DNA of 64,000 nucleotides from a virus (Duplodnaviria; Caudoviricetes). This document shows positions 671 to 61,134 of this stretch, one piece after another. The stretch lies in IMG/VR virus record IMGVR_UViG_3300027533_000013, positions 32,001-96,000 of that record, one strand, 5' to 3'. The notes beneath the pieces were generated by a model. That model saw only the letters and a program-made list of their open reading frames with translations. It had not been told where the DNA came from and did no database searches. A program made the translations under genes and the position numbers. Positions within the stretch are counted from its first letter, which is position 1; each line of letters begins with the position of its first letter.

Positions 671-699
671 TTGCAATTGAGTGCAAAAATCCGTAGACT
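671..699 (+). promoter_or_regulatory. sigma70-like promoter for the portal operon, overlapped by the 14-bp palindrome
   Basis: TTGCAA-17 nt-TAGACT; TGCAATTGAGTGCA at 672-685 covers the -35 box. Confidence 0.5.
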
Positions 700-746
700 G
701 GGTCATCCTTGTGTACGACAGAATACCGCTTTGTCAAGGGTGATTC

Positions 747-2612
747 ATGCTCAAGTTGATTGGCGACCCGGTCCAGAAATCTGAACACCCCGAGCACAAG
801 ATAACCTTCATCCAGAAGGTGATTAAGGGTGAGACGTGGCTGGTGATGGCACACAGTGCCGTCGAGCTAGAGGACGAATGGTCCAGCCTCTACTTCACGT
901 CAGGCAGTCAGAACAACCTGTTCCTGATGCCGCCTTTCGAGCCGAATGTCTTGCTCAACCTTGTCCAGACCAACAATGTCCTGAACCAGTGCATCGAAGC
1001 GATGGAGGTGAACATCGATGGCACAGGGCATGAATTTGTCCCGGTGGATGAAGGGAAGGACATCGATAAGAAGGAAGAGAAGATCGCCAAGGCGTTCTTT
1101 GATGAGCCGTACCCGAACATCTCCATGGTCACCATCCGGCGCAAGTTGCGGCGGCAGATGGAGTCTGTAGGGTATGGGTTTATTGAAGTGCTTCGGAACA
1201 TGGCCGAGGACGTGGTGGGTCTTCGCAGTGTGGAGACGGCCCACATCCGGATGGTGAAACTAGACAAGCCCATCCAAGTCAAGAAGAAGGTGCAGCGGGA
1301 TGGCACAGAAGTCGAGCTACTGATCTGGGAACGTGAGCGTCGTTTTGCACAGACCGTCGCCCTGAAACAGCAAGTGTACTATCGGGAATTCGGAACCACC
1401 CGTCATATTAACCGTGACACTGGGGATTGGGAAGAAGAAGGCAAGAAGATCCCGCCTGAAAAGCGTGGGTCGGAGTTGCTCTGTCTGGGTATTAACCCCG
1501 ACGTGACCACTCCGTACTGGTTGCCACGATGGATTAACCAGTTACCATCAGTCATTGGCTCCAGAGCCGCCGAGGAACAGAACCTCCAGTTCTTGGATGC
1601 TGGTGGCCTGCCCCCAGCCATTGTGTTCATTCAGGGTGGCACACTCATCAAGGACACGTCCGACCAACTTCGCATGTATTTGTCGGGCCTCAACAAGAAC
1701 AAGAACCGGGCGGTGGTGGTCGAGGTCCAGTCATCGTCAGGTTCACTTGATGCGGCTGGCAAGGTCGATGTGAAGGTGGAGCGTTTCGGTTCTGCCCAGT
1801 CTCAGGATGCGATGTATACCCAGTATGATGAGTCCACTAAGGAGCACATCCGTATTGGCTTCAGACTCCCACCCCTGTTTCTGGGTTATGCGTCAGACTA
1901 CAACTTCGCCACCGCACAAGTGAGCTACATGGTGGCCGAGGCGCAGGTCTTTCTGCCAGAGCGTGCTGAGTTTGACGAGATGATCAACAAGACCATCATG
2001 AAGGAGCTAAAACTCAAGACGCTCCTGTTCAAGTCGAAGCCCATCACGCTGAAGGATGTGGAGACGCAGTTGAAAGCTCTTGAATTGTCGGCGGCACTGG
2101 CCACACGCGAGAGCTACCTGAAGGAAATCAACACAGTCAGTAGCATGGCACTGGAACTGGCTGAAGTGCCTGCTCAGGGTGTTGGTCCCGACAACGTGCC
2201 ACTCAAGAATACGCCTACGGCTGATGAACTGGATTCGGGTAAGTTGCCTGCATCCATGACGGAAGTGAAGCCGGGTGTGAAGCCAGAACCCAAGGAAACC
2301 ATCGAAGAAATGGGGAAGAAGGAAGAAGTCAAGTCCATGGCCCGAGCAAAGGCCAAGGCCATGTATACCTTCAAGGAGCGGAAGGCGGCAGGCGATCTAC
2401 TTGCGTTGACGCAGGACTATGCCATGTATCAGGGTCTGATGCCCACACTGGCACAGAAGCAGGAATTGACCGCTGAGCGTGCTGAGGAAATCAATGCTGA
2501 GGTCGAGTCGTTGCACCCCGAAGACCTGAGAGCGTTTAATAGCTTACTGGCTATGGTGGTGTTTGGGTCCGATGATGCGGACCTGTCGTCCATCGTTGCG
2601 GCGTCGAGGTAA
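747..2612 (+). CDS. phage portal protein (PBSX/XkdE-like)
   Basis: 621 aa; G.G.IEVLRN, YW.PRW, EEQNLQFLDAGG.P, IRIGFRLPPLFLG..DYNFATA motifs typical of portals; first gene of the head module. Confidence 0.9.
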   Translation: MLKLIGDPVQKSEHPEHKITFIQKVIKGETWLVMAHSAVELEDEWSSLYFTSGSQNNLFLMPPFEPNVLLNLVQTNNVLNQCIEAMEVNIDGTGHEFVPVDEGKDIDKKEEKIAKAFFDEPYPNISMVTIRRKLRRQMESVGYGFIEVLRNMAEDVVGLRSVETAHIRMVKLDKPIQVKKKVQRDGTEVELLIWERERRFAQTVALKQQVYYREFGTTRHINRDTGDWEEEGKKIPPEKRGSELLCLGINPDVTTPYWLPRWINQLPSVIGSRAAEEQNLQFLDAGGLPPAIVFIQGGTLIKDTSDQLRMYLSGLNKNKNRAVVVEVQSSSGSLDAAGKVDVKVERFGSAQSQDAMYTQYDESTKEHIRIGFRLPPLFLGYASDYNFATAQVSYMVAEAQVFLPERAEFDEMINKTIMKELKLKTLLFKSKPITLKDVETQLKALELSAALATRESYLKEINTVSSMALELAEVPAQGVGPDNVPLKNTPTADELDSGKLPASMTEVKPGVKPEPKETIEEMGKKEEVKSMARAKAKAMYTFKERKAAGDLLALTQDYAMYQGLMPTLAQKQELTAERAEEINAEVESLHPEDLRAFNSLLAMVVFGSDDADLSSIVAASR

Positions 2613-2614
2613 CC

Positions 2615-4452: not shown

Positions 4453-4454
4453 CC

Positions 4455-6092
4455 GTGGCGAAGACTGTAGACCTGAGAACGTATATCGCACTGGAGAGGG
4501 CGTTTCTTAGGCGTCTTCTGCGGACGTGGCGTATTCAGTCGGCTCCCATTTACCAGAAAATCACGCAAGCCTGTCTCGACCATAAATGGGATGAAGCCCG
4601 TCGATTGGTGCCCGATCTGGATATGGCTGAAGTCGGCACGGAAAACAAAGAGTGGATTACCTACATGCTCCTGTCGTGTGGCGTGTTCGGGGCCAACATG
4701 GTGGCGAGAGGTAAACCCTCCTTTGTGGGCGTGGGCACTTTCGATACCTTCCTGAAGCAGACCACCAACAACATGCTCCAGTATCTGGAGCACAACGCCA
4801 CCGCACAGATTCAGAAGGATGCTCTGCAATTGATTGCAGAGGATGAGGCCAAGACCAAAGCCATCAAGTTCGATGAGAGTAAACACCCACGAGATGGTAA
4901 AGGTAGGTTCGCTTACCATGGCACGTCCAATGAGTTGGCCGAGAAGATTCTGAAGGAAGGACTCAAGCCTCTCAGCGAGATGGATCGGAGTTCTCCCATA
5001 GGGAAAGGGTTTGCATCCACGAGTGAGAAAGTGGCGCTGAGTTATGCGGCGATGGCGTCGGATGATTCGGTGGACACTATTACAGTGTTTGTGTTCAAGC
5101 CAGAAGCCAGTCGTTACTTCCAGCCTGCCAACAAGCATGCTTTTGGGCCATCGGGTTCGTGGGCACAAGCGCGTAGCACAGAGATGTCGAGCACAGAGAC
5201 TGTGCCACCGGAATTGATTCACGAGGTGCGTCAGTATCGACTGGCTGATGTGGTCGAGGCACTAGGGCCGCAAGGTGGGAAACAGTATGCAGATTGGGAG
5301 TCTCCACTGGAGGATGTAGATCCAGTGAAGGTGGTCCGAAAAGAAGATCAGGTCATTTATGTGGCCTTTTTGACCACGTCTGGGCCTGTGTTAAAATGGG
5401 ATGCGTCGAAACACCCACGGGAACCCAAGGGAAGCGCCATAGGAGGGCAGTTCACCGAGGGAACCGTGCAGGAGGGTCCGGACTTTACCCGAGTGGCCAT
5501 CACGAGTCAGCGGCCAGAGGGTGATCCGGGGCACCAAGCGAACAAAGAGGTCTTCCAGCACATGCACGAGTTCCAGAGCCGTCTGGAGGCCCTACCGGGG
5601 GTTACCAGAGTCTCTGTGAAGCCGGGAGTCGGTGGGTGGGATGGTGGGTCGGAGTCCATGTGGCAAGTGTTCTACCGGGGCAACGGAGCCGCCAGACGGT
5701 TGGTGGCGCAGACGGCTAAGACGTTCAATCAGGATGCGGTGCTGGTCCTGAAGAAGTGTACGGGCAGTAATTGCCAGCCTGCGGTAGAATTGTCGTTCGC
5801 GGGTGGGGTGTCTCCGGTCGTCAGGGAAAAGGTCCATGCGGTGCTGGTGAAGAACGGCATCCAAGGGTGGACGTGGATGAAGCGGGGCGGAAAGACCCTA
5901 CTCCGGATGGTGTCGGTGCCCCAGTGGGGTGGCGTGGCTGAGAAGCACCAGAAGGCGACAGCCGCCGTCAGTCAGAAGTTACGAGAGGATGGGCTAGAGA
6001 ACCATCGTAGCGTGCATAAAGTGGCCGTATCGGTCATGGAGCGCGAGGGAGACAACAGCTATGACCGAATCATCGGACGAACAGGCACGTAA
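4455..6092 (+). CDS. MuF N-terminal half fused to an ADP-ribosyltransferase-like domain and a possible SAM-lyase-like domain
   Basis: Helical N-terminus; tag AIKFDESKHPRDGKGRF; ART motifs YHGTS..ILKEGLKP..FASTS..ALSYA..VPPELI; second tag VLKWDASKHPREPKGSAIGGQF; third domain GGWDGGSESMWQV..FNQDAVL. Confidence 0.6.
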   Translation: MAKTVDLRTYIALERAFLRRLLRTWRIQSAPIYQKITQACLDHKWDEARRLVPDLDMAEVGTENKEWITYMLLSCGVFGANMVARGKPSFVGVGTFDTFLKQTTNNMLQYLEHNATAQIQKDALQLIAEDEAKTKAIKFDESKHPRDGKGRFAYHGTSNELAEKILKEGLKPLSEMDRSSPIGKGFASTSEKVALSYAAMASDDSVDTITVFVFKPEASRYFQPANKHAFGPSGSWAQARSTEMSSTETVPPELIHEVRQYRLADVVEALGPQGGKQYADWESPLEDVDPVKVVRKEDQVIYVAFLTTSGPVLKWDASKHPREPKGSAIGGQFTEGTVQEGPDFTRVAITSQRPEGDPGHQANKEVFQHMHEFQSRLEALPGVTRVSVKPGVGGWDGGSESMWQVFYRGNGAARRLVAQTAKTFNQDAVLVLKKCTGSNCQPAVELSFAGGVSPVVREKVHAVLVKNGIQGWTWMKRGGKTLLRMVSVPQWGGVAEKHQKATAAVSQKLREDGLENHRSVHKVAVSVMEREGDNSYDRIIGRTGT

Positions 6093-6231: not shown

Positions 6232-6237
6232 GACACC

Positions 6238-8094
6238 ATGCCACCACTTACCCGGCAATTGATTGCAACTATCAAGTCTATGGTGCAGGGCTATGCCCAC
6301 GTCTTGAAGTGGAATCGCAACCAGCCGCGTGGCCCGAAGGGGTCAGCCACGGGTGGGCAGTGGATCAGTCAAGGGAGTCATGGGACCGGAGCGGCCAGCG
6401 CAATCGATGATAAATACGGCACGGCACCGGGGATGGAACGCTACGCCACCCATGGGGATCGTGGCGCAGGCTTTTCCACCATGGATCGAGCACGGGCTAT
6501 CGCAGGCCACACGCGGACACCCGACCCATCCTTCAAGCCTGTTCTGTTGAACGTCAAAGAAGGTGGCCGAGGATTTGTGAATCGTCCTCGTGGAGTGGGT
6601 GTTCCCGAACCACCACCGCCTGATCCACATCAGGAAGTCATTCAGGCCCTGAAGACCGACCGAGCGACAGACAGCCGCCCACTGGGGAATGCAGGCAATG
6701 CGAATGCCTCATGTGTGGTGACGTTGGTGGATGACAAGGGGGAGACCATCGAAGCCGTCTATAAACCCGAACGTGGTGAATCGTGGAGTTTGCGTTTTGC
6801 GAACCATGACATCAAGAAGATGGTCACCAACAAGGACTTTTCGTTGGCGGCTCGTGAAACCTTTGCGTATGAGGTGGATTCGGCACTGAAGCTGGAAATC
6901 GTGCCTGAAACCGTGCTCCGTGAGGTCGTAGACGAAACTAACATCGATATCAACACCAAGGCCAAAGGCGGAATGAACAGTGGTGATGGGCAGGGATACG
7001 ATTCAGACCAAGCCCGAGAGGATTATCGAGACTATCAGGAAAATGCCGAAGAAGACGCCAGAGAAAATGCCTATGAGGAAGCTGGCGACCAGATGGCTGA
7101 CCTATACCATGAGGCACAAAAAGAGCATGTTTCTGATATCCAAGAACGTGCCAAAGAGGTACAGGAAATCTGGGATGAGGAATATGAGGCGTTCAGAGAT
7201 CAGGATGCCCATGGAACACGTTCCGCCATGTTGGAACATCCCACGTTGCCCATGGGGTCTAAGGAACCCTTTGAGCGCAAGCCGGATGAAGGCAAACTGA
7301 ATCCCATCGAGTTTCTGGATGAAGCAAACGTCGATGTCACGGACTCTATGAACGAGGCCGAGGAAAACAAGGTCCGAGAACTTATCCGAGCGAAATTGAA
7401 GGACGGCTACAGCGGGTTCGATGAAGTCGATGAAGATGACGCGGAAGAACATCTGGACCGGGATAAATTCATCGAAGACCATGCGGACACCGAGGCCAGA
7501 ATCATTGACAGTATCGTAGCGAAAAACGTCCAGTCCTATACCGAGTGGCGTCACGACCATGGGTATAACACGTCAGGCACTGCTCCGAGCGGCAGTGGGA
7601 GTGGCAGTGGCCCTGATATGAATCCTGATGCGCCCCATCCTCAAGGGGGGTCGTTTCAGCACTACCGCAGTGATGCACGGAAAGACGGATACCTCAGTGC
7701 CAGTGGTGGAGCCAAGTTGGCGGTGCTGGACTACATGATCGGCACCATGGATCGTCACCCGAACAATTTGATGTACGACGGAACGGAACCTGTGGCTATC
7801 GACAACGGCTACAGTATGCCTGCGGTGCCTGACGGTGATCCGCCCGATGCTTTCACCTTCCGGTCGCATGGCGCGAGGGATTGGGCTAGTTCCGGCACAA
7901 TACCAGACGCCACCCGAACTGAGATACTCGATTCCATGTCGAAGACGAATTGGCAGGCCGTGATGGACCGCCACCCGAACATGAATGCACTGGAGCGGAA
8001 GGCATTTCTGGGCCGTGTCGAGAAGATGAAGACGGCGTTGGGCACTCCGGATGGCCTGAAAAACCTGTGGAGCGGTTTGAACAATATGTGGTAA
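6238..8094 (+). CDS. PI3/4-kinase/HipA-like kinase effector 2 with a large acidic insertion
   Basis: Tag GYAHVLKWNRNQPRGPKGSATGGQW; VYKPERGE, RETFAY, IVPETVLRE, PHPQGGS, LDYMIGTMDRHPNN, AIDNGYS. Confidence 0.8.
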   Translation: MPPLTRQLIATIKSMVQGYAHVLKWNRNQPRGPKGSATGGQWISQGSHGTGAASAIDDKYGTAPGMERYATHGDRGAGFSTMDRARAIAGHTRTPDPSFKPVLLNVKEGGRGFVNRPRGVGVPEPPPPDPHQEVIQALKTDRATDSRPLGNAGNANASCVVTLVDDKGETIEAVYKPERGESWSLRFANHDIKKMVTNKDFSLAARETFAYEVDSALKLEIVPETVLREVVDETNIDINTKAKGGMNSGDGQGYDSDQAREDYRDYQENAEEDARENAYEEAGDQMADLYHEAQKEHVSDIQERAKEVQEIWDEEYEAFRDQDAHGTRSAMLEHPTLPMGSKEPFERKPDEGKLNPIEFLDEANVDVTDSMNEAEENKVRELIRAKLKDGYSGFDEVDEDDAEEHLDRDKFIEDHADTEARIIDSIVAKNVQSYTEWRHDHGYNTSGTAPSGSGSGSGPDMNPDAPHPQGGSFQHYRSDARKDGYLSASGGAKLAVLDYMIGTMDRHPNNLMYDGTEPVAIDNGYSMPAVPDGDPPDAFTFRSHGARDWASSGTIPDATRTEILDSMSKTNWQAVMDRHPNMNALERKAFLGRVEKMKTALGTPDGLKNLWSGLNNMW

Positions 8095-8380: not shown

Positions 8381-9583
8381 ATGCTGATCTTCCAGCGGAA
8401 GCCTGTGCAATCAATTGCATACGTCTCCATCCTGAAGTGGGATCGGAACCAGCCCCGTGTCCCGAAAGGGTCACCAGAGAGTGGACGATGGACGCAGGGT
8501 GGTGTCAGTCAGGGTCTCGCCGCCACCACCATGGCCGGTCGAACGCCCAGAACGTCTACGTTCAAGCCGCCTGAGTATGGCTTTGGCAGTACGGAAGATC
8601 GTCGGATGGAAGCAGATAGGGCAAAAGCCGCAGGGTTTGCCACGATCATGAACGCCCCCATGGGCACGGGGTTTGCGAACCCACCACGTATCACCGGGCA
8701 ATCTTCGATGGTGAGGCGGTTGACGACGCCATCGAAAGCCCCGGTAGTATCGGCGGCACCAACTGGTTCGTCATTGAATTCGATGAGGACTGGCAACATC
8801 GCAGATTCTGAGGAAATCAATCCGGGGACACACGCCAATGAAACGTACAAAGTGACGTTGGAGGATGGGACCGTTGCCGCATTGAAGGCTGAATCAGGTG
8901 AACGCTGGGCCGCAGCCTTTTGGAATGACGATATTTCAAACTACGTCATCAACCGGGATCTGTCGCTGGGTGAGAGAGAAGCCATTGCCTTTGAAGTCTC
9001 AGAGGCGTTAGGACTGGATCTGGTGCCGGAGACGGTCCTCCGAGAACACATTGATGTTGTTAGTACCGGGCAACCTTTTGAGGGAGTGAACATCATGAAT
9101 GATGAGGCACCCCATCCACATGGAGGTAGTCTCACGAAGTGGGTGCCGGGTATTGATTCCGATGGTCAGAAAGCGACTCCACAAGAAATCCGAAGACTGG
9201 CAGTATTGGATTACGCTATGGGGCAGATGGATCGGCATCCCAACAATGTGTCCTTCGACGCTAATGGCAAGCTCCTCGCCATGGACAATGGTTACAGTCT
9301 TCCGGCTCCCATCTATGGTCATGATGAATTCACTTTCCGGTCGGCCACCACAAGAACGTGGAGGGAGTCAGCTAGTGACGACTTTCCAGAGGATGAACGG
9401 AAGCAAATGGCCGATGCGTTAGATAGGACGGACTGGACAGCGTTTGCTGATCGTCATTCGGGCATGAGCAGTCGAGAACGTGAAGCGTTTTTGGGTCGCA
9501 TTGAGAATCTGAAAGAAGCCATGAAGACCACCACGGGCTTGAAGGAACTGTGGAAGAACCAGACCCTGTATATGGACAATTGA
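8381..9583 (+). CDS. PI3/4-kinase/HipA-like kinase effector 3
   Basis: Tag AYVSILKWDRNQPRVPKGSPESGRW; ALKAESGE, REAIAF, LVPETVLRE, LDYAMGQMDRHPNN, AMDNGYS; close paralog of 6238..8094. Confidence 0.8.
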   Translation: MLIFQRKPVQSIAYVSILKWDRNQPRVPKGSPESGRWTQGGVSQGLAATTMAGRTPRTSTFKPPEYGFGSTEDRRMEADRAKAAGFATIMNAPMGTGFANPPRITGQSSMVRRLTTPSKAPVVSAAPTGSSLNSMRTGNIADSEEINPGTHANETYKVTLEDGTVAALKAESGERWAAAFWNDDISNYVINRDLSLGEREAIAFEVSEALGLDLVPETVLREHIDVVSTGQPFEGVNIMNDEAPHPHGGSLTKWVPGIDSDGQKATPQEIRRLAVLDYAMGQMDRHPNNVSFDANGKLLAMDNGYSLPAPIYGHDEFTFRSATTRTWRESASDDFPEDERKQMADALDRTDWTAFADRHSGMSSREREAFLGRIENLKEAMKTTTGLKELWKNQTLYMDN

Positions 9584-9873: not shown

Positions 9874-11649
9874 GTGCTGCAATCGATTGCAGGATATGCG
9901 GCGGTGCTGAAGGGTGGCACCTATAGCTATGGGAATACCCAGATCCCTATTGCTCCTACCAGTGCAGCCGCGCTTAGTCTGAACATGGCCCGAGACGCCA
10001 TTCAGGATGACCATCTGGAGGGCGCAGGAAAGGACGTGGACCCCAACCACGTCACGGTGCGGTATGGCCTGTTGAACGAGAACCTCGACGCCCTGAGAGC
10101 CTTTCTTGCCAGTCAGAAGCCTTTTGAGGCGCGAGTCGAGGGGGTGGAGTTATTCCCTGCCTCAGAACACTCGGATGGAGCCGTGCCCGTGGTGGCGAGG
10201 ATCGTGTCACCCGAGTTGCACGCTATCGAGGCTGAGATTGGAAATTACGCAGATTTCAAGGAAAAGAGCTTCCCGGTTTACAAACCGCACTGCACATTGG
10301 CGTATTGTAAACCGGAGATTGCCGAGCGGTATCAAGAACTATTTGTCTATGGTTCGTTTGTGGTGCAGAGCATCACCATCAGCCATGCGTCAGGTGTGCA
10401 GGAAACCATCCCGTTCGGTATAACGAATAAGTTCGATGTAACGAAGAAAGATCCGGTCAGCGGACGTTATGTCACGCCGTTTGTGTCGTTCGATAAGCAA
10501 GGCGATGAGCAGCTACGTATGATTACCAGTCTCAACGCCAGCCGCTTGGCGACGTGGGGATTTACGGCTGAGGCCGAAGTGCTGGGGATGGCCCGGTATC
10601 GTCTGACCGCCGTGCTCGATGGTCGGACCAGTAAGTTCTGCCGCATGATTGATGGCCATATTTTTGATGTGGCTGATGCGCGTGAGAAGGTGATTGAAGC
10701 CCTGAACGTGCAAGACCCCAACGACCTTCGCGTCGTCCAACCATGGCCCAAGCAGGACAAAGCATCGATGGCCATGTACAGCGAGATGAATGCCCAAGAA
10801 CTGACTGACCGAGGGCTACACATCCCACCCTACCACCCGCACTGCCGCACGTTGTGCCGGTCGGTGGAGTCGAGCAAGGGGAAGACCACCGAGGTCACGG
10901 CCACGGTGCCTGATGGGACTGAGGTCTTTCAGCCTGTCACAGCGGCTGACCTAGCGGAGATCGGTGTGACAGCGACTCCTGAACAGGTGGCCGAGTGGAA
11001 CGCCAACATCGGCATGTCTCCGGTCGAGTTGATGACCAAGCTCACTGGAGGGCGTCCCCAAGAGGTGATGACACGAGGCGTTGGTTCGAAGCCGGTGGAG
11101 TTTCATCCCTCTGGGGATATCGGACTGAACGCCCGAGGGGTCACGGATGGGGTGGAATTCAAGCTGGGGGCGATACTGGACCCATTCACGGGTATCTTCT
11201 ACTTGACCCGTGCGGAGTTGGCTGAGGGCACGCCAAAGGCCGAGGCCGCGTTCCTGAAGCGTATGTTCAGTGCCATGCTGGACATGGGGAAGAAGTCCAC
11301 GGCATCCTCGATTGCGCTCAGCGTGGCCGGTAATGCGGCATACTACGCCAAGCTGGGATTTCTGCCTGACGAGTTGGAATGGGATGCTCTGCGGACGTAT
11401 TCACTGGGAGAGTTGGAAGCAGGAGTGTTGCAGCCGATGATGGCATCGCTGGCCCCGGCTGATGCGTTGCTGGTGAAGCAGCTACTACAAGATGGGTCAC
11501 CATCGGCCTTAGTTGCTCTGACCGAGCTACCGTTCACCTACGCAGGCAAGACCATCGGTGAGTGGATTCTCAGTGAGTCGTCAGGTATTTGGGCACTGGA
11601 TCTGGCCGATGATTTGATGGTAGCGCAGGCGAAAGCGTACCTCTCATGA
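9874..11649 (+). CDS. 2H phosphoesterase (Acb1-like) + MuF/SPP1 gp7 C-terminal half + GNAT-like domain
   Basis: Two HxT motifs (HVTVRYG at 10048, PHCTLAY at 10285); MuF motifs AVLDGRTSKFCRMIDG and PPYHPHCRT; C-terminal AAYYAKLGF. Confidence 0.75.
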   Translation: MLQSIAGYAAVLKGGTYSYGNTQIPIAPTSAAALSLNMARDAIQDDHLEGAGKDVDPNHVTVRYGLLNENLDALRAFLASQKPFEARVEGVELFPASEHSDGAVPVVARIVSPELHAIEAEIGNYADFKEKSFPVYKPHCTLAYCKPEIAERYQELFVYGSFVVQSITISHASGVQETIPFGITNKFDVTKKDPVSGRYVTPFVSFDKQGDEQLRMITSLNASRLATWGFTAEAEVLGMARYRLTAVLDGRTSKFCRMIDGHIFDVADAREKVIEALNVQDPNDLRVVQPWPKQDKASMAMYSEMNAQELTDRGLHIPPYHPHCRTLCRSVESSKGKTTEVTATVPDGTEVFQPVTAADLAEIGVTATPEQVAEWNANIGMSPVELMTKLTGGRPQEVMTRGVGSKPVEFHPSGDIGLNARGVTDGVEFKLGAILDPFTGIFYLTRAELAEGTPKAEAAFLKRMFSAMLDMGKKSTASSIALSVAGNAAYYAKLGFLPDELEWDALRTYSLGELEAGVLQPMMASLAPADALLVKQLLQDGSPSALVALTELPFTYAGKTIGEWILSESSGIWALDLADDLMVAQAKAYLS

Positions 11650-11792: not shown

Positions 11793-11871
11793 GAAAATAG
11801 TTGTTGCGTTCTTGCGTTGTCCTGTAAAATAAGACCCCGTGCAACTGATTGCAATTGTGAGTCAGTAACCC

Positions 11872-14620: not shown

Positions 14621-14657
14621 GTTGGCAATTGATTGCACGAATGGATCAGTTGCCAAC
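14621..14657 (+). terminator. stem-loop containing the 14-bp palindrome
   Basis: GTTGGCAATTGATT...GATCAGTTGCCAAC inverted repeat between the cargo array and the protease locus; no clear U-tract. Confidence 0.35.
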
Positions 14658-17967: not shown

Positions 17968-17999
17968 AAGGGACTCTTCCGCAAGGGGGAGTCCCTTTT
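17968..17999 (+). terminator. rho-independent terminator after MCP
   Basis: AAGGGACTCTTCC-GCAA-GGGGGAGTCCCTT followed by T residues. Confidence 0.75.
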
Positions 18000-18012
18000 G
18001 CACTTGATTGCA

Positions 18013-22791: not shown

Positions 22792-23327
22792 CCTTCACAA
22801 ATTACGGACATGAAGTAGCCCTGTGGAATGTGTTGCAATCAATTGCATCGCAGCGGAAGGTGGCTGCTTATCTGGAGGTGGGGGTCCGCTACGGCAATTC
22901 ATTGGCGGTGGTGCTGTCTCAGCACTTCCCGTATCGGTTGGCGCTTTGTGATACGTGGGGTGGTGAGTATGGGGGCGAGTCGTTTGGTGGTCCGACGCAC
23001 ATCGAGCGTCTGTTGCGGGACTTGAAATACACCAATCCGACTACGTATCTCAGCGGTAATTCGCATGATCTGTTGAAGAAGGCTATCGGCCAGTTCGATT
23101 TGATTCTGGTGGATGGTGACCACAGTGCGGCGGGGGCCAGAGAGGATCTGGACGACTGTTGGCGACTGCTGATGCCGGATGGGCTGTTGGTGTTCGATGA
23201 CCTTAATCACCCGTCGCATCCCTATTTACTGACGGTATACCAAGATTTCGTAAAGACCGTCAATGCTACCGTGGTGCATGAAGATATGACCCCGATGGGT
23301 GTGGGCGTTCTGTGCAAGACCGCGTAA
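22788..23327 (+). CDS. class I SAM-dependent methyltransferase (Methyltransf_24-like)
   Basis: YLEVGVRYGNS, FDLILVDGDHS, L.PDGLLVFDD. Confidence 0.85.
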   Translation: MTFTNYGHEVALWNVLQSIASQRKVAAYLEVGVRYGNSLAVVLSQHFPYRLALCDTWGGEYGGESFGGPTHIERLLRDLKYTNPTTYLSGNSHDLLKKAIGQFDLILVDGDHSAAGAREDLDDCWRLLMPDGLLVFDDLNHPSHPYLLTVYQDFVKTVNATVVHEDMTPMGVGVLCKTA

Positions 23328-24112
23328 TCGTCCCAACGTATGACCGACCCGAGATGTTGTGGCTGTGTTTGGAGCATATTGCGCGTAGCCCAGATAGTAA
23401 ACACCTGTCGGTGATGGTGTATGCGGATGCACACGTTGGGCATACGACACCTCGGGAGGAAATTGAACAAGTCGTAGACAAGTTTCCTCACCTAAACATT
23501 CAAGTGGGCTTTCGTAATCCCCATCCGTTCCACGGGAACAGTTTCAACGTCTTGATGGCGTTCAAGGACGCTTTTTATGAGCCACAGGTGCGGTATGTCT
23601 TCATGATTGAAGACGACGTGATGGTTCATCCGCAGTTCTTTCAGTGGCATTGGACGGCACATGCGGCGAAGACGCTGGGATGCAGCATCGGCGTCATTAA
23701 AGAGCCACAATACGGCCCGTATGCGTCTCTCGGTGTGTGTTTTCGGCGGGAGATGCTGGGGTTGATTGTGCCGCACTGTCAGGTGGCGTACTTTCACAAT
23801 CTTCGGATGTATTGCAAGACACGGTTTGCCCCGTCAAAGTTTGATTGCGAGCAGGATGGGCTGTTCTGTCGTGTCTTGATCGGGCATTCGATTGCGTGGC
23901 CACCGATTCCCTATGCACAACATGTGGGGTGGTATGGTTACCACCGGAAGAAGAGTATTCGACCGGTTGGCACGTTAGCAGAACGCTATTATCAGGTAAA
24001 GCACGTATTGACCAGTGCCACGGCTTTGCGCCAGTGGGTGAAAGATTTTGGGGATATTAAGGTCTTGCAATTGAGTGCAACGAGTGGCACAGTATCTGGT
24101 GCAGCCGAGTAG
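23312..24112 (+). CDS. glycosyltransferase, GT-A fold
   Basis: VIVPTYDRPEML, VFMIEDDVMV, EQDG, QHVGWYG. Confidence 0.75.
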   Translation: MQDRVIVPTYDRPEMLWLCLEHIARSPDSKHLSVMVYADAHVGHTTPREEIEQVVDKFPHLNIQVGFRNPHPFHGNSFNVLMAFKDAFYEPQVRYVFMIEDDVMVHPQFFQWHWTAHAAKTLGCSIGVIKEPQYGPYASLGVCFRREMLGLIVPHCQVAYFHNLRMYCKTRFAPSKFDCEQDGLFCRVLIGHSIAWPPIPYAQHVGWYGYHRKKSIRPVGTLAERYYQVKHVLTSATALRQWVKDFGDIKVLQLSATSGTVSGAAE

Positions 24113-45535: not shown

Positions 45536-45564
45536 TGCAATCAATTGCAAAGGAGTGCGTACCC

Positions 45565-45966
45565 ATGTTGCAGCCACAGGCGATTGCCGAAACGTATGTG
45601 CCTCCGGCCCACTGTGTCGCCTTGACCCGGTACTTCTACCCGCCCTCAGAGCGGTCGGACGTGGTGCTGGCACGTCAGCTATTCAGGGCCGAGAAGGTCG
45701 TCTCTCAGGTCATCGTGAGGCCCCTACAGGCCCACCAGCGGGAAGCCCTACTGTGTCTGGTGTCCGATGTGGTGGCCGGGTTGGCTGCGGCTCCGGTACG
45801 GTTTGAAAAGAGTTTTCTGGTGTCGGCTATCAACAAGGGGATGTTCCAGATCGCATCGGCTGAATTTCATGTGTTCTGCTATGCGGACGGAAAGGTACAG
45901 ACCCGTCTCTGGGAAAAGAGACGGGCCGAGCGGTACCTCTTTGAGCGCGGGGAATTACTCTTCTAA
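45565..45966 (+). CDS. degenerate GH24 phage-lysozyme-like protein
   Basis: PL..HQREAL..L, SFLVSAINKG..ASAEF, GKV...L..RRAERYLF resemble the GH24 C-lobe; no catalytic E..D..T or TIGYG visible. Confidence 0.5.
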   Translation: MLQPQAIAETYVPPAHCVALTRYFYPPSERSDVVLARQLFRAEKVVSQVIVRPLQAHQREALLCLVSDVVAGLAAAPVRFEKSFLVSAINKGMFQIASAEFHVFCYADGKVQTRLWEKRRAERYLFERGELLF

Positions 45967-46275
45967 CGCTTGCTCGATGGCCGCGCACTCCTTTGTGTAG
46001 GCGGGGCCATAAATCTGAGGGAAGCCTTCCGGGGCTTCTGTGCAGACGACGACGGCTTGGTTACAGGCCAGACAGAAGTTGTTCCAGCGTCCAGCCGGAT
46101 CGTTGGGACGTTCGTGCCAGCCTGCGAGGTCGTGACCATGCTTGAATGCGGCCTTCTCCGCGTCACGCTTGCGTTCAGGTAGTTCACCGAACTGGTCGAT
46201 GGCCTCGTAGTGCTCGACAATGATCTTGCGCTTCGCCTTCACGATGTTCTTACGGCGAACAAACTTTAGTGCCAT
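45955..46275 (-). CDS. hypothetical protein (only clear minus-strand gene), H..CxxC
   Basis: AAGGAG RBS on the minus strand; has its own promoter. Confidence 0.7.
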   Translation of the reverse strand: MALKFVRRKNIVKAKRKIIVEHYEAIDQFGELPERKRDAEKAAFKHGHDLAGWHERPNDPAGRWNNFCLACNQAVVVCTEAPEGFPQIYGPAYTKECAAIEQALEE

Positions 46276-46661: not shown

Positions 46662-47849
46662 GTGTTGACATTCGACGTGGCATTCAAAGCGCATCTGCCG
46701 TTTATCGGCATCCACACGGATGATCCGGTGAATGTGAAGACGGTGCTCCAATTTATGAGTGGTAAGGCATTCATGCCGTTGCCCACCGCCAAAAATGCCC
46801 CGATTGGGGACATGTATCTATGGTTCACGGAAGATATGACACAGGTGACCGTGGACATGTATCGGAAGCTCTGTGCGGCCACCGCGTCAGCGGTTGTCAT
46901 CAACCCAGACAAGTCGTCGTCACTGGTGTATGACACCGGCACGTTGCTGGTCCCGTCCGTGTTCCATATGGATTATCTGGCCCAGTTCGTGGAAAAGGAT
47001 CAGATCCCTGTTATTGCTCAGCAATTGAAGGGTTTGTCGCTGAAAACGGCTCAAGAGGTCGTGCAGTTGACGATGGCCCGAGTGCAGTCAATTGCACCGC
47101 AAGAGGTCCGGAAGACCCGGCAGATGATGGGTGGGGAGACCCCCGGTCTGACCCAGCTTGACACGGACTACGACTTCTACGAGTGGCCAGCCGCCCTACA
47201 GGAGTGGTTGAACCTGAATGATCCATACTTCCTTGATGTGAACACGCCACAGGTGTTGCAGCCCCGTGGCCTGTTGCTGGCCGGGGAGGCAGGCACGGGT
47301 AAGAGCATGGCGGCACGGGTGCTGGCGAAGCACTGGGACGTGCCCTTGTTCCGTCTGGATGTCTCGACCAGCCTGAACCGGTATCTCGGAGAATCCGAGA
47401 GCCGCATCGCCAGAAACCTGAACGTCATCGAGCAGAACGCGCCGTGTGTCTGGTTGCTGGACGAAGCCGAGAAGTTGTTCAACACGCAGGGCGACGAAGG
47501 CACGACTCAGCGTATCCTGAGTCAGATGCTCTGGTGGTTGCAGGAGCATCGGTCCAGAGTCCTGACCATCATGACGACCAACAATCTGGAGGTCATCCCG
47601 AAGGAGTTGTATCGAGCGGAGCGGCTGGATAAGGTGCTCCATCTCGAAAAGCTCTCCTTGTCGGCGGCGAAGCAGTTTGCCGCAAAAGTCTACGAATCGG
47701 TGGTGCAGTCGCCGCTACCGATCAAGAGACAGAAGGTGATCCGGGATTTGCTGGACAAGGGTGACAAGGGCACGTATGCTCACGCCGAAGTGCGGGTGCT
47801 GGTCTACGAGCTTGTGAAAAAGAGTGGGTGGTTGGACCCGGAGAAATGA
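46662..47849 (+). CDS. AAA+ ATPase (Ycf46-like)
   Basis: GLLLAGEAGTGKS, YLGESE, PCVWLLDEAEK, MTTN, R..RLD. Confidence 0.85.
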   Translation: MLTFDVAFKAHLPFIGIHTDDPVNVKTVLQFMSGKAFMPLPTAKNAPIGDMYLWFTEDMTQVTVDMYRKLCAATASAVVINPDKSSSLVYDTGTLLVPSVFHMDYLAQFVEKDQIPVIAQQLKGLSLKTAQEVVQLTMARVQSIAPQEVRKTRQMMGGETPGLTQLDTDYDFYEWPAALQEWLNLNDPYFLDVNTPQVLQPRGLLLAGEAGTGKSMAARVLAKHWDVPLFRLDVSTSLNRYLGESESRIARNLNVIEQNAPCVWLLDEAEKLFNTQGDEGTTQRILSQMLWWLQEHRSRVLTIMTTNNLEVIPKELYRAERLDKVLHLEKLSLSAAKQFAAKVYESVVQSPLPIKRQKVIRDLLDKGDKGTYAHAEVRVLVYELVKKSGWLDPEK

Positions 47850-50568: not shown

Positions 50569-51460
50569 AGGTATGAAGGTGGCCGGGGATATTGTGGCGT
50601 GGGCACTGCTGTCTCGGATTATCGAAGTGTCGGCCCAGCCTAACGTATACTGGATCGCCAAGACTCGCGTGCAATGGATGGCCGAAACGGGCTTGACGCT
50701 CAAGCAATACAACCGGTGCATCCGGGTGCTGGAGAAGAAGAATCTGATTATCGTCAAAATTATGAAACACGAGGGCCTAACTATGACCCACGTGAGGATG
50801 GGACCATCCCATTGTTCCCAAAGGGAACAACCAAATCGATTCATTAAATACATTGATCACAGTAAAGAAGTATTAAAGAAAGAAAGTGATCAATGTATTG
50901 GCGATGCAAGCATCGCCAGAGCAGGAGAGTTAGTATCAATAGAGCACGGGGGTATAGAAGAAGGGAATAAGGAGAATAAAGAGAAGGAAGGGAATAAGGA
51001 GAATACGGGGTGGTTAATGAAAGCCACAGAAGTATTGAAGAACCATAAGGGTGGTGGAGTAGAAGGGAGTTTGGAGGCGTACTGGAAGTCCCGGTGTGCC
51101 CTCGTCTCCAATGAGTATCAGCGTCCCCTGACTGGGAAGGAGCGCGGACAATTGAAGCAGTTGTCCAAGTATTTGGGGATCGAGACGAAACCCGTGATTG
51201 CGTATGCGGTGGAGCACTGGTTGAAATTCAGCACGCACGCAGCCATTTCGGCGGGGACGGTAGGGGCTGAGAGCCCCCATATTGGATTTTTGTTGAAGTA
51301 CCATGCGGTGGCAATGAATTTGCTTCACCCTGTTGAGAAGCCACCGGTCGTGGCGGAACTACCCGTGCAATCAATTGCACCGGTCGCGGAGAAAGTGGAA
51401 GTCCATGCAATTTCTCTGAAGGAGTTGGAGGAAATGCTGGACGGACTGAAATCTCCGTGA
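50555..51460 (+). CDS. putative replication initiator (winged-HTH N-terminus)
   Basis: WIAKTRVQWMAETGLTLKQYNRCIRVLEKKNLI HTH; low-complexity linker; precedes loader and helicase. Confidence 0.65.
   Translation: MTQLEGMKVAGDIVAWALLSRIIEVSAQPNVYWIAKTRVQWMAETGLTLKQYNRCIRVLEKKNLIIVKIMKHEGLTMTHVRMGPSHCSQREQPNRFIKYIDHSKEVLKKESDQCIGDASIARAGELVSIEHGGIEEGNKENKEKEGNKENTGWLMKATEVLKNHKGGGVEGSLEAYWKSRCALVSNEYQRPLTGKERGQLKQLSKYLGIETKPVIAYAVEHWLKFSTHAAISAGTVGAESPHIGFLLKYHAVAMNLLHPVEKPPVVAELPVQSIAPVAEKVEVHAISLKELEEMLDGLKSP
50797..51005. repeat. candidate replication origin inside the initiator gene
   Basis: Inverted repeats TTGTTCCC/GGGAACAA (50812-50830) and TGGCGATGC/GCATCGCCA (50899-50918); AT-rich tract; GAAGGGAATAAGGAGAATA at 50960 and 50987. 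Confidence 0.45.
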
Positions 51461-54829: not shown

Positions 54830-54831
54830 CC

Positions 54832-55311: not shown

Positions 55312-55324
55312 CCAAGGAGGCACC

Positions 55325-55934: not shown

Positions 55935-56880
55935 ACAGTGTGTGGCGTTTCTTGAAGCCCTGAGATGCACGCAGATACGGGTGAAGGACAACGGATGGGT
56001 GGAGGCTGCGTGCCCCTTGGCGAAATGGTTGCATAAGAAGCACGTCGATCACACCCCTTCGTTTGGATTGCAAGTCGCACCCGGTCAACGTAGCTGGTTC
56101 ATGTGTTTTGCGTGTCGGCAAGGGAGTGCCGAAGAATTGCTGTCCAGCATCGAGATGCACTCGCACATGAATGCGAAATACGACTTCGCACGGTGCCACC
56201 AGCTATTGCAAGACGAAGAATACGTGGTGCCACTTCCGGAGTATGGCGAGTTCGCCAGTGCGGCACAGGTGTTCGACCCGTGGCCACAATACTGGCTGGA
56301 CAGCTTTCAGAAAGCAGACTGGGTGATTGAGGCTATTCAGTATTTGACGCATCGAGGGGTGTCAGCTACCACGGTTCAGCAGTATGACCTGCGTTGGGAT
56401 ATGAAGCGACAGATGCTGGTGTGCCCGTACCGTGACGTGTTTGGGCGGCTGGCAGGAGCCCGAGGTCGTGCCGTGGGGGATGCCACCCTGAAACACTACG
56501 ACTATACGTGGCAGGGTAAGAACAACGCGAGACTTTGTTGGTACGGCGAAGAAGTCCTGAACCTGCCCGGTCCTGTCGTGGTGGTGGAAGGCCAGTTCGA
56601 CTTGTGGAAGACCGCCACGGTGTTCCCGAAGACCGTCGCTAACCTCACGGCGAAGCCCACGCTGGAGAAAATGAAGAAGCTCGGGGACTGTGGGATGGTG
56701 ATCCAGATTCCAGACCGTGATGAAGCGGGGAAGGAAAGCATGCACCGGTATGCCAAGCTCTGTGACCAGCTTGAACTGGAATACCGTCCTATCTGGCTTG
56801 ATGAGGGTGTGAAAGATCCGGATGAGTGCCATCCGGACTACCTGAAGGAGAGAATCCTGCAATCAATTGCAGTCACTTGA
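55924..56880 (+). CDS. DNA primase (Zn-finger + Toprim)
   Basis: CP..H..D..PSF..CFAC; YL..RG; VVVEGQFD; PDRDEAG; KDPDE. Confidence 0.85.
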   Translation: MTAEQCVAFLEALRCTQIRVKDNGWVEAACPLAKWLHKKHVDHTPSFGLQVAPGQRSWFMCFACRQGSAEELLSSIEMHSHMNAKYDFARCHQLLQDEEYVVPLPEYGEFASAAQVFDPWPQYWLDSFQKADWVIEAIQYLTHRGVSATTVQQYDLRWDMKRQMLVCPYRDVFGRLAGARGRAVGDATLKHYDYTWQGKNNARLCWYGEEVLNLPGPVVVVEGQFDLWKTATVFPKTVANLTAKPTLEKMKKLGDCGMVIQIPDRDEAGKESMHRYAKLCDQLELEYRPIWLDEGVKDPDECHPDYLKERILQSIAVT

Positions 56881-56905
56881 CAAACTGAGACGATGATGTT
56901 AAAGT
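56877..56905 (+). promoter_or_regulatory. sigma70-like promoter for the SSB gene, with the 14-bp palindrome 5 bp upstream
   Basis: TTGACA-17-TAAAGT with TG extension; TGCAATCAATTGCA at 56858-56871. Confidence 0.7.
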
Positions 56906-56949
56906 TCAAAGTTGATCCACCGCCGATCCAAGAAACTCAAGGAGAACCG

Positions 56950-57711: not shown

Positions 57712-57714
57712 CTT

Positions 57715-59049: not shown

Positions 59050-59053
59050 GAGA

Positions 59054-59506
59054 ATGGGTATGGCACTGATTTGGAAGACTCAAGAAGTAGCTGAGCCGGT
59101 GAAGGCCGGGTTCAGTTGGGACGCATGGTATGCGAAGAACAAGACACGCCTGTCGGAGAAGCGTGCCAAGCGGTATCGTGAGGACGTAGGCTATCGGAAT
59201 GCGGCACTCGCCCGTAGTCGGGCACAGCGAGGCACGAAGAAGCCGACGCCTGCGGGTGACCACACGGTGTCGTTCAACGATGCCGCGCAGACGTTAGGCG
59301 TCACGGTGTGGGTGTTGCGTGAATGGCGACGGAAAGACTACTTCCCGGAGCCAACACGTCGAGATGGTCGTCTGTGGTTCGCGCCGTGGCAAGTTCACAA
59401 CCTGTCGTTTCTCGTGGACTACTTCGCCAAGCACGGATCGAGAGTGTCGGAGCAGACCCGTGCGGGATTGGAAGATATCGTTCGGTTGATCTATGCGAAT
59501 TGGTAG
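59054..59506 (+). CDS. HTH (MerR/excisionase-like) DNA-binding protein
   Basis: SFNDAAQTLGVTVWVLREWRRKDYFPEP..GRLWF. Confidence 0.7.
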   Translation: MGMALIWKTQEVAEPVKAGFSWDAWYAKNKTRLSEKRAKRYREDVGYRNAALARSRAQRGTKKPTPAGDHTVSFNDAAQTLGVTVWVLREWRRKDYFPEPTRRDGRLWFAPWQVHNLSFLVDYFAKHGSRVSEQTRAGLEDIVRLIYANW

Positions 59507-59509
59507 GGA

Positions 59510-59884
59510 GTGAACATGGCGTTGAAGGTTGGGAAAGTCGTGTTGGGGAATTCGCAGGCGAAGACTCAGGGGGCAGATTACACGAAGCATCTGACCACGA
59601 AACCGGTGACCGGGATGGTGACGTCATCCAAATCCGTCGCAGGCAAAGAGGTGGCAGCTTCTGCGTCTGAGACGAAGACGCTCCATCCCGGTGTGTTTTC
59701 GAACGGCATGTCCATCACGGTGGAAGGGGGCCGTGTCATCAATCTTGGGAACTACGAAACCGCCCGTATTGGTGTCACGATCACGGTGCCGTGCGATCCA
59801 AGCACACTGAACGAGGCATATAGTTTTGCCACAGAATGGGTGTCGTCAAAAATTGACGAGGCGGTTAAGCTGGCTAAAGAATGA
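59510..59884 (+). CDS. hypothetical phage protein
   Basis: INLGNYETARIGV motif common in phage replication regions. Confidence 0.6.
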   Translation: MNMALKVGKVVLGNSQAKTQGADYTKHLTTKPVTGMVTSSKSVAGKEVAASASETKTLHPGVFSNGMSITVEGGRVINLGNYETARIGVTITVPCDPSTLNEAYSFATEWVSSKIDEAVKLAKE

Positions 59885-59913
59885 TTGACAAATTGCTAGC
59901 CGTCTGGTAAGCT
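59885..59913 (+). promoter_or_regulatory. sigma70-like promoter for recA
   Basis: TTGACA-17-TAAGCT with TG extension. Confidence 0.7.
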
Positions 59914-59943
59914 ACGCGCTCTCGCCATCGCAAGGAGTGCTCA

Positions 59944-61134
59944 TTGGCCTTAGTCGTGAAATCGACGGTCCCTCTGAAGCCTGTACCCGTGGTGCCCAAG
60001 AAAGACAAGGGCAAAGTTCCACCGTCTGGCAACCTGATGGAAGTTCTTGCTGGAATACGCAAGGACAAAGGCGACAAGGTCGTTGTCGCTGGGAACAAGA
60101 TTCCGGTCGTGCGACGGATGCCGACTGGTATCTTCGAATTCGACTTCTATACCGGTGGTGGCTTCCCCTGTGGCCGCTACAGCATCGTCTACGGCCCTGA
60201 AAGTTCCAACAAGACCAACCTCTGCCTGAAGGCGGTAGCGAACGCCCAGAAGCAGCCTGCACCCTGTAACAAGGCCATCTGGGTCAACGTCGAACAGAGC
60301 TTCGACCCTGTCTGGGCTGAGAAGATGGGTGTCGATACCCAAGAATTACTGGTGGTGAATGCCGGATATGGAGAAGAAGCCATCGACTTGGTGGACGCGC
60401 TTGTCAGGGCTGAAGACGTGGCTATTGTTGTGGTCGATTCAATGGCTGGACTTATTGCCTCCAAGGAGATCGCGCAGTCGGTCGAAAACTACGACATCGG
60501 GACGTCGGCGCTCCTGATCAAACGCATGGTGAATAAACTCATGATTGCCTTTTGCGAATCGCAGAAGCGTGACCATGACCCGTGCGTCATCTTGATCAAT
60601 CAGACCCGGTTCAAGCCGGGAGTGATGTTCGGTGACCCCGAGACGATGCCCGGTGGTGAGGCCCAGAAGTTCCTGTCCAGTCTCAGAGTCCGTGTCTACG
60701 CCAAGAACATCATCGATAAGGGCACCAATACGCTGGTGTTCAAGGATACGTCTGCCATCATCAAGAAGGCCAAGGTGCCCGTCAGGGCGACCAGTTTTGA
60801 CTTCAAGCTGTGTGTCCATGCCCATGATGATTTGCAGGTAGGTGAGACAGACAGTTTCCACATGGTGAAGTCCTACCTACAGGCTCTCGCCTTCCTGTTG
60901 AAGACCCCCAAGGGGTACACCATCGGAAAGACCACGTTCCCGACGCTGACCGCGATGCAGGAACGGTATATGAAGGACAACAAGTTCAAGCTGCTTCTTC
61001 AGGGCATGGTCATCGATGCCTACAAAGATAAGTTGATGCTGGTGGAAGAAGCCGATTTTTCACCCAAGGAAGTGCAGCCGGGGACACCTGTGGGTGTGCA
61101 ACCAATTGCAAATGGAGAGGAAGATGCCCAATGA
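59944..61134 (+). CDS. recA: RecA/UvsX-like recombinase
   Basis: GGFPCGR..YGPESSNKT, VVDSMAGL, INQTR, FGDPETMPGG.AQKF. Confidence 0.9.
   Translation: MALVVKSTVPLKPVPVVPKKDKGKVPPSGNLMEVLAGIRKDKGDKVVVAGNKIPVVRRMPTGIFEFDFYTGGGFPCGRYSIVYGPESSNKTNLCLKAVANAQKQPAPCNKAIWVNVEQSFDPVWAEKMGVDTQELLVVNAGYGEEAIDLVDALVRAEDVAIVVVDSMAGLIASKEIAQSVENYDIGTSALLIKRMVNKLMIAFCESQKRDHDPCVILINQTRFKPGVMFGDPETMPGGEAQKFLSSLRVRVYAKNIIDKGTNTLVFKDTSAIIKKAKVPVRATSFDFKLCVHAHDDLQVGETDSFHMVKSYLQALAFLLKTPKGYTIGKTTFPTLTAMQERYMKDNKFKLLLQGMVIDAYKDKLMLVEEADFSPKEVQPGTPVGVQPIANGEEDAQ

Follow-up and report, generated by a model that had tools for sequence, protein, structure and literature searches.

An evenly spaced 14-bp palindrome in a family of large phage genomes, a possible docking lattice for a phage-encoded DNA-binding protein

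Here we present an analysis of a 14-bp palindromic repeat that recurs throughout a window of 64,000 nucleotides, comprising bases 32001-96000 of a complete 119,701-bp virus record (IMG/VR IMGVR_UViG_3300027533_000013, designated G000; 55% guanine plus cytosine, GC) in which nearly all of the ~170 genes lie on a single strand. The recurrence had been noticed in a sequence-only reading of the window; it is confirmed here and proved to be larger than first noted, extending over the whole genome and to all kin tested. In its general form the motif is TGCAA-N4-TTGCA, with arms that are constant and inner bases that are specific to each lineage. We judge the chances to be evenly balanced that the repeats constitute a genome-wide docking lattice for a phage-encoded DNA-binding protein acting on the whole chromosome, and we lean slightly away from, rather than towards, the further claim that its role is architectural rather than transcriptional.

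The enrichment of the motif is extreme. In the window, TGCAATYRATTGCA is present in 8 exact copies, against 0.00 expected from shuffled sequence. At up to two mismatches 19 copies were recovered, every one of which has at most one mismatch, against an expectation of 0.84 in shuffled sequence and a maximum of 4 in any shuffle. The sequence-only reading had estimated about 20 copies over 672-61110, and the 19 sites fall where it had placed them. The complete G000 genome carries 13 exact copies and 34 at no more than one mismatch, or 37 sites by the relaxed consensus [TG]GCAA[TC][CT][AG][AG]TTGC[AC].

These sites are spread with a regularity that random placement does not produce. Gaps between neighbouring sites in G000 range from 1.2 to 6.8 kb, with a coefficient of variation (CV) of 0.42 versus 0.96 for random placement, a value reached in none of 20,000 simulations. 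Across G000 and its four close relatives, G001 to G004, which were located through the portal protein, the CV is 0.42-0.54 against the same expectation of 0.96, and the even spacing holds when the null model draws sites from gene starts only (P <= 1.5e-4). In the pooled gaps of 11 genomes, 3.7% measured less than one quarter of the mean, where 22% would be expected, and 0.8% measured more than 2.5 times the mean, where 8% would be expected. The generic TGCAA-N4-TTGCA pattern gives significantly even spacing for 9 of the 11 genomes; G001 and G004 are non-significant with this pattern and significant with their own tuned consensus.

The lattice is a property of the whole phage family. Megablast comparison of 12 kb of the window with cultured phages gave no match, and relatives were reached via proteins instead. 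The resulting comparison set consisted of 13 motif genomes, eight cultured phages among them, and three capsid-related controls. All 13 carry TGCAA-N4-TTGCA, in about 16-55 copies each (25-39 sites each in the relatives found through the portal protein), versus 0-1 copies in each of the controls, Bacillus BMBtp14, Clostridium Clo-PEP-1 and Streptomyces Sollertia. When viral contigs were scanned for the 14-mer in its exact form, all the multi-copy contigs checked proved to be kin of this phage, with GC contents from 39% to 63%. The eight cultured phages tested, all of which have the lattice, infect Stenotrophomonas, Vibrio, Aeromonas, Pseudomonas, Rhizobium and Rhodobacter; the Stenotrophomonas phage DLP5, for example, has 27 perfect copies of TGCAAT-NN-ATTGCA and 36 at one mismatch or fewer. 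Wherever exact-arm copies are frequent, a spacer of 4 predominates (31:1 in DLP5, 30:1 in PaMx31). Rhizobium phage P11VFA is the sole genome with a frequent second spacer, having 13 copies of TGCAA-N3-TTGCA in addition to 47 exact-arm copies at spacer 4. It is the PolA/DnaB/primase/UvsX/resolvase module, rather than the capsid lineage, that the motif follows. A search of the openly readable literature for the motif variants (full 14-mer and shorter cores) found no mention in a phage context, and the paper describing phage DLP3 (PMC7326821) does not mention the repeat. The inner four bases sort by lineage as follows:

TYRA: G000, DLP5 and RcZahn
TTAA: Vibrio phages PG28 and KarBoss
CNNG: Rhizobium phage P11VFA
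CYRG: Aeromonas phage HJ05
CAAA: Rhizobium phage Y1_11
RCGY: Pseudomonas phage PaMx31

Evidence on the origin of the protein that would read these sites came from a phage relative, 72% identical in a 262-residue protein considered below, that lies at one end of a 374-kb contig of an Acidobacteriaceae metagenome-assembled genome (MAG). Of 28 exact matches in this 4.7-Mb MAG, 21 are in the first 48 kb of that contig, ~2.2 kb apart; the remaining 4.65 Mb has 7, with unrelated inner bases, where a reversed-pattern control gives 3, so that motif density in the 48-kb phage part is ~290-fold that of the rest. Because the host part of the MAG is not enriched for the motif, it is probable that a protein encoded by the phage itself reads the sites. 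The alternative, that the phage recruits or titrates a conserved host protein of the PurR/CytR type (LacI family), would be in keeping with the arms GCAA...TTGC, which we take to match the PurR box and inverted CytR octamers, and with the fact that the hosts of every cultured phage are Proteobacteria. This alternative we consider very improbable, since the host part of the MAG is near its reversed-pattern control, the hosts cover Alpha- and Gammaproteobacteria and probably Acidobacteria, with relatives ranging from 39% to 63% GC, and the inner bases track phage lineage rather than host class, differing even between the two Rhizobium phages.

The same contig (C20 of assembly G005; 374,533 bp) provides a separate observation, in that the lattice ends at ~48 kb; this point may be where an integrated or partial prophage meets its host, or else the assembly is chimeric. 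Additionally, G000 encodes two paralogous proteins beyond the window end (99260-99964 and 100076-100780 of the record) with a C-terminal PEP-CTERM sorting motif (expect value, E, about 1e-6). Taken with the position of the closest relative in a bacterial assembly, on the Acidobacteriaceae contig, these paralogues provide a host lead for the uncultured group, whose members probably infect Acidobacteria.

Selection on the sites acts on DNA, as the sequence-only reading had claimed. In the 11 genomes, 39% of 364 sites are not fully coding, although non-coding DNA makes up just 6-13% of these genomes. Those that are coding favour one frame, xTG-CAA-NNN-NTT-GCA, with 164 sites against 38 and 17 in the others; the preferred frame reads L-Q-S/L-I-A, both of the rarer frames bring in Cys codons, and one of the two can make a TGA stop. 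In the window, coding copies translate as LQSIA, VQSIA or VQLIA, in agreement with the reading proposed earlier. Many sites stand at the identical codon across relatives, and among codons for the same amino acid, the codon itself is identical in 74% of cases inside the motif versus 50% in the flanks (p = 2e-4). Furthermore, the site at 51366 is retained in G001, G002 and G003 within flanking protein that cannot be aligned; the keeping of orthologous sites in such surroundings argues for selection at the level of DNA. Sites also turn over between relatives, and accessory regions are populated as well, from which it follows that density is maintained and not just individual sites.

Two features of the sites bear on how they are recognised. 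At the central step, CA/TG is far commoner than CG, and TA is almost absent; in addition, pairing in one-mismatch variants is never restored by compensation. Together these fit a protein reading two half-sites and not a hairpin, and so support the core inference of the sequence-only reading, that these are sites for a DNA-binding protein. An element acting as RNA or single-stranded hairpin, in processing, translation or priming, might be suspected from the several sites that adjoin ribosome-binding sites (RBS), 10-18 nt ahead of a start codon, although such adjacency is what tight intergenic gaps force anyway. The stem would be a weak one of 5 bp (-2.5 kcal/mol) in which the central pair is usually a mismatch and which the variants break uncompensated, and both orientations occur; we regard this possibility as vanishingly small.

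The regular spacing and the family-wide distribution also have to be weighed under a different explanation, in which the sites serve a DNA transaction such as nicking, site-specific modification, recombination-dependent replication, end protection in the manner of Chi, or lagging-strand priming. Transactions of this kind need a site within a few kb of any position, and the spacing is indeed of a "coverage" type, with long and very short gaps nearly absent; the motif tracks the replication module and not the capsid lineage; DLP3 DNA was resistant to 15 of 15 restriction enzymes tried and is thus modified somehow (PMC7326821); and motif-linked nicks are found in other phages (PMC11780129). However, the known nick motifs (T5, tf, Rembedalsseter) are asymmetric and limited to one of the two strands (PMC11780129), whereas the lattice motif is palindromic and on both strands, and nicks in both strands of a palindrome would sever the duplex. 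That 15 enzymes with different sites were all resisted indicates a base modification of general scope rather than one specific for a 14-mer. Moreover, gene-content breakpoints show no excess of sites (odds ratio 1.45, p = 0.63), a result that also speaks against the recombination points for which the sequence-only reading had suggested a breakpoint check. A DNA transaction is accordingly a poor candidate in our estimation. Quite apart from the lattice, phages of this group probably carry modified DNA; the TGCAATCGATTGCA variant at window positions 9878-9891 includes a ClaI site, ATCGAT, and ClaI is one of the 15 enzymes that DLP3 DNA resists (PMC7326821).

The sites of the window, given without strand, are as follows; "exact" denotes exact copies.

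672..685, TGCAATTGAGTGCA, intergenic, 61 nt upstream of the portal gene
4825..4838, TGCAATTGATTGCA, exact, within the long open reading frame (ORF) 4455-6092, overlapping an alternative start
6254..6267, GGCAATTGATTGCA, codons 6-10 of the kinase-like gene 6238-8094 (RQLIAT), with a G003 counterpart at offset 0
8406..8419, TGCAATCAATTGCA, exact, 5' end of gene 8381-9583 (VQSIAY)
9878..9891, TGCAATCGATTGCA, exact, codons 2-6 of the Mu-F-like head protein gene 9874-11649 (LQSIAG)
11840..11853, TGCAACTGATTGCA, intergenic, 18 nt upstream of the start at 11872, with counterparts in G001, G002 and G003
14624..14637, GGCAATTGATTGCA, intergenic, 36 nt upstream of the start at 14674
17999..18012, TGCACTTGATTGCA, directly after the capsid gene and a terminator-like hairpin
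22834..22847, TGCAATCAATTGCA, exact, coding (LQSIAS), at the same codon in G001
24066..24079, TGCAATTGAGTGCA, 3' end of gene 23762-24112, 59 nt upstream of the next start
26233..26246, TGCAATTGATTGCA, exact, within the tail-chaperone gene (VQLIAL)
30702..30715, TGCAATCAATTGCC, tape-measure gene at relative position 0.95, retained in G001 and G003
34250..34263, GGCAATCAATTGCA, 3' end of gene 32521-34323
38768..38781, TGCAATTGACTGCA, coding (MQLTAK), at the same codon in G002 and G003
45536..45549, TGCAATCAATTGCA, exact, occupying the gap from a stop codon to the RBS of the lysozyme gene
47083..47096, TGCAGTCAATTGCA, within the AAA ATPase gene (VQSIAP), at the same codon in G002 and G003
51366..51379, TGCAATCAATTGCA, exact, linker of the replication-initiator-like gene 50555-51460
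56858..56871, TGCAATCAATTGCA, exact, 3' end of the primase gene, 5 nt ahead of a TTGACAAAC -35 box
61097..61110, TGCAACCAATTGCA, 3' end of the UvsX/RecA-like gene, at the same codon in G003

The site at 26233 has kept its codon position in each of the four close relatives, even in G004, where the flanking protein differs. Gene 50555-51460 owes its designation to a match to phrog_428 (E 5e-6).

Several of these sites lie beside transcription signals. The portal-upstream site, together with the T that precedes it, forms a -35 box TTGCAA (671-676), followed after 17 bp by TAGACT (694-699), so that the -35 overlap proposed earlier at 671 is borne out. Its position is retained in G001, G002, G003, G004 and HJ05, and the layout TTGCAA-17/18-TAGACT/TATACT/TAAACT/TAGACC is found in G000, G001, G002, G003 and HJ05. 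The TTGCAA at the 24066 site could also act as a -35 box. Other contexts described in the sequence-only reading are likewise present, namely a TTGACA that begins 5 nt past the 56858 site (the -35 placed near 56877), a TAAAAT ahead of the 11840 site, an imperfect longer inverted repeat around the site at 14624, and a GGGG..CCC-TTTT hairpin ahead of that at 17999. As an independent matter, the extended -35 box TTGACAAAC (window 56877-56885) recurs, with CTTGACAAAC found 10 times in G004 and also at G000 117443, a recurrence suggestive of early promoters of the sigma-70 type that form a family apart from the palindrome.

Such contexts raise the possibility of genome-wide transcriptional silencing or roadblock, in which a repressor bound every ~3 kb would block both initiation and read-through on a genome read nearly in one direction, for example in phagemid lysogeny; Cluster A stoperators, the dispersed C1 operators of phage P1 and the KorB OB operators would be the models. 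The placement of nearly all genes on one strand is consistent with this, as are the -35 box overlapped by the portal-upstream site in five genomes, the 39% intergenic share of the sites, and the temperate lifestyle of DLP5 and DLP3, the former of which lysogenises as a phagemid (PMC7326821). KorB, moreover, represses from distal palindromic sites (PMC11790492). Against this, a -10-like hexamer occurs at promoter distance in just 2-4% of sites, alike on the two strands, many sites are deep within long genes, the orientation of the inner asymmetry is inconsistent between lineages, and a temperate lifestyle is on record for DLP5 and DLP3 alone among the lineages. We consider silencing unlikely. 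The palindrome was also rejected as a promoter element in general, on the same scarcity and strand equality of -10-like hexamers, the portal-upstream site and a few others being the ones that overlap promoters. A sigma-54 promoter was rejected as well: the -24 and -12 elements of the sigma-54 consensus are spaced as GG-N10-GC, whereas GGCAAT-N2-ATTGC gives GG-N9-GC, one base short, and most copies have TG and not GG.

Cluster A stoperators had been one of three options in the sequence-only reading. They are similar to the lattice in that tens of short conserved sites are distributed genome-wide, in intergenic and coding DNA, and serve to control the genome as a whole (PMC9283540, PMC6550527). 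A stoperator lacks symmetry, follows the direction of transcription and is recognised by an immunity repressor acting as a monomer (PMC9283540, PMC4351075). The lattice sites, in contrast to asymmetric sites of 13-14 bp, are 14-bp palindromes with symmetric arms, and their orientation is inconsistent, with TCAA:TTGA ratios of 13:12 in G000 and opposite biases in DLP5 (21:9) and G004 (4:12). Orientation was judged here on raw counts; the local-strand heuristic is unreliable in GC-rich genomes. This comparison does not support a strict stoperator, the breakpoint result lends no support to recombination points, and the option that fits best is the remaining one, a parS-like or nucleoid-organising site, the sites being palindromic, even, unoriented and mostly off promoters.

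Two phage proteins are candidates for the reader by their distribution and predicted folds. The first, which we rank above the other, is the 262-residue protein, encoded at 97463-98251 of G000, ~1.5 kb beyond the window end; its DLP5 counterpart is gp066. One orthologue is present in each of the 13 motif genomes and in none of the three controls, and the protein is encoded in 50 cultured-phage records. Its structural model has a predicted local distance difference test score (pLDDT) of 72, with a core of 80-90, and residues 56-163 match ParB-parS (Z 7.1), KorB (6.4/6.1), Spo0J (6.3), SopB (4.9/4.7) and VirB (4.7), as well as the unrelated Raf1 (6.8). The most conserved segment of the family across lineages, YRKAxYLIxIY, is located in a helix-turn-helix (HTH)-like unit, and several lineages have N-terminal tails rich in Lys, Ala and Pro. 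Among the lineages compared, which are few, no obvious covariation was seen between the recognition segment and the inner four bases of the motif. The protein may be the reader, an assignment we hold with slightly less than even confidence.

The second candidate is located within the window:

59060..59506, plus strand, 148-residue MerR/RacA-type winged-HTH protein, between the superfamily 2 (SF2) helicase and UvsX genes

Its DLP5 counterpart is gp059. It matches MerR_1 of Pfam at E 0.0014 (atlas score 0.94), and PF13411 is found in most of its homologues. The AlphaFold2 model (pLDDT 85.6) gave Foldseek matches to NmlR, CueR, CarH and DNA-bound RacA, and its HTH superimposes on the RacA DNA-binding domain with a template modelling (TM) score of 0.73 on the RacA chain and a root-mean-square deviation of 1.9 A. 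The recognition helix differs between lineages. One orthologue is present in 11 of the 13 motif genomes; none could be detected in Y1_11 or RcZahn, both of which bear the motif. Thus the binder proposed earlier at 59054..59506 is a genuine MerR-type winged HTH that is missing from two motif-bearing relatives, and as the general reader it is a doubtful candidate. The other binder proposed, the minus-strand ORF 45955..46275, gave no match to a Pfam or PHROGs family, and a homologue was detected in just one of the four close relatives. No LacI-type HTH (PF00356) was found in G000, DLP5, PG28, P11VFA, PaMx31 or HJ05 at E <= 1. The AAA ATPase was rejected as a DNA reader, as it is a Cdc48-type unfoldase instead. 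Most of the conserved small proteins of the phage were left without explanation by Pfam and PHROGs.

In the docking-lattice explanation, a two-fold-symmetric protein would read the constant arms TGCAA/TTGCA over the 4-bp centre, and selection would retain about one site per 2-4 kb, placed between genes if possible and otherwise within a gene in the one tolerable frame. The bound protein might then organise, compact, partition or coat the whole phage chromosome, in the manner of parS-ParB, NBS-Noc (NBS, Noc-binding site) or ram-RacA. A few sites could double as operators, as at the portal-gene promoter (671-699), where binding would cover the -35 box. The most likely reader would be the 262-residue protein, with a putative DNA-binding domain that resembles those of ParB and KorB at the level of fold and with no detectable ParB N-terminal CTPase domain. 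Several points weigh against this explanation. The even spacing would suit other DNA transactions as well; the fold match is middling for a helical domain (Z about 7, with Raf1 among the matches); and profile searches of the 262-residue family against Pfam and PDB gave no match. All core genes of the replication module co-occur with the motif equally, so that the 262-residue protein is not singled out, and the comparison of 13 positive with three negative genomes is a small one. Furthermore, the ParB N-terminal domain (PF02195) is absent from G000 in a six-frame search at E <= 1, in which control genomes gave matches; ParB-style sliding or spreading therefore cannot be assumed. Some relatives encode a separate ParB_N protein. 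The fullest version of the explanation, a widespread and previously undescribed system in which tens of evenly placed sites are bound by a CTPase-less protein resembling the ParB DNA-binding domain, with the phage genome being folded, partitioned or shielded by it, we offer as a tentative and rather unlikely proposal.

Among published systems, the nearest analogue appears to be the 17-bp dyad repeat of the Cluster O mycobacteriophages, TGTTCGGNNNCCGAACA (TGTTCGG-N3-CCGAACA), for which a dimeric binder has been predicted (PMC4351075). Both genomes carry more than 30 dispersed, dyad-symmetric copies, of which ~40% are intergenic and the others near 5' ends or in genes, mostly off promoters; in both, orientation has no meaning and the repeats are not at rearrangement junctions (PMC4351075). 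The two have, however, nothing in common in sequence, arms (7-N3-7 versus 5-N4-5 here), phage lineage or host phylum. The Cluster O repeats have their highest density at one end of the genome, while the lattice is even; its arms stay the same over many genera and hosts, and it has candidate readers with names.

In behaviour, the lattice resembles most closely the parS, OB, NBS and ram systems. In ParB-parS, KorB-OB of RK2 and Noc-NBS alike, an HTH recognises 13-16-bp palindromes scattered over a replicon (PMC11790492), some of them in genes or far from promoters, and the lattice site is likewise palindromic and dispersed; the 262-residue protein may, by its model, resemble their DNA-binding domain at fold level. 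The lattice differs in having far more sites, regularly spaced, and the clamp-loading and sliding of KorB (PMC11790492) are unsupported here, as the search of G000 for a ParB N-terminal CTPase domain was negative. RacA, a host sporulation protein of Bacillus subtilis with a winged HTH of the MerR superfamily, organises and anchors the chromosome, binding the 14-mer palindrome TGACGCCGGCGTCA in 25 chromosomal regions via its terminal TG/CA steps (PMC4914108). The ram and lattice sites are both 14-bp palindromes of 5-N4-5 form with TG/CA ends (TGACG-CCGG-CGTCA versus TGCAA-N4-TTGCA). The differences are that ram sites are GC-rich and gather near the origin, whereas the lattice sites span the whole genome evenly, and that two lineages with the motif have no detectable copy of the phage MerR-like protein.

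The new elements are arms that stay constant across hosts, a pattern that reaches into cultured phages, and two candidate readers identified by name. Dispersed dyad repeats in phages have been described in detail once before, in the Cluster O mycobacteriophages, and the even spacing found here is kept by selection strong enough to shape protein sequences. The pattern is experimentally accessible in culturable carriers, namely DLP5, DLP3, Summit, the SIO-2-like Vibrio phages, PaMx31/SM1, the Rhizobium phages and RcZahn. Should the architectural interpretation hold, the lattice would reveal the means by which large phages organise their chromosomes. For practical use, the motif provides a simple signature for recognising this phage group, and phage-host boundaries, in assemblies such as the 374-kb Acidobacteriaceae contig.

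Some further observations concern neighbouring genes and other repeats. The long ORF 4455-6092 has a weak PARP/ART-like match (E 5e-4) and corresponds to the N-terminus of DLP5 gp002; the annotation of the latter as a "ParB-like nuclease domain protein" was set aside, as the corresponding G000 region is ART/PARP-like and no ParB domain was detected in G000. The tail assembly chaperone gene (25935-26396, with 26399-26593 as the next gene) has towards its 3' end, at 26280-26300, a C-AAAAAAA-G run that is kept in four of the five genomes, with CCAAAAAGGG in G004; it looks like the usual programmed frameshift site of tail chaperones. A second over-represented word, CGACTCGTTC, with 21 copies in G003, 9 in G001 and no prominence in G000, may be a separate regulatory repeat. 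Outside the window, G000 1606-1950 and 105087-105557 encode a protein resembling the RapZ C-terminal domain (E 9e-21), which is conserved in the relatives, and a small protein, upstream of the large terminase gene, with a weak match to the AP2 domain (E 5e-4).

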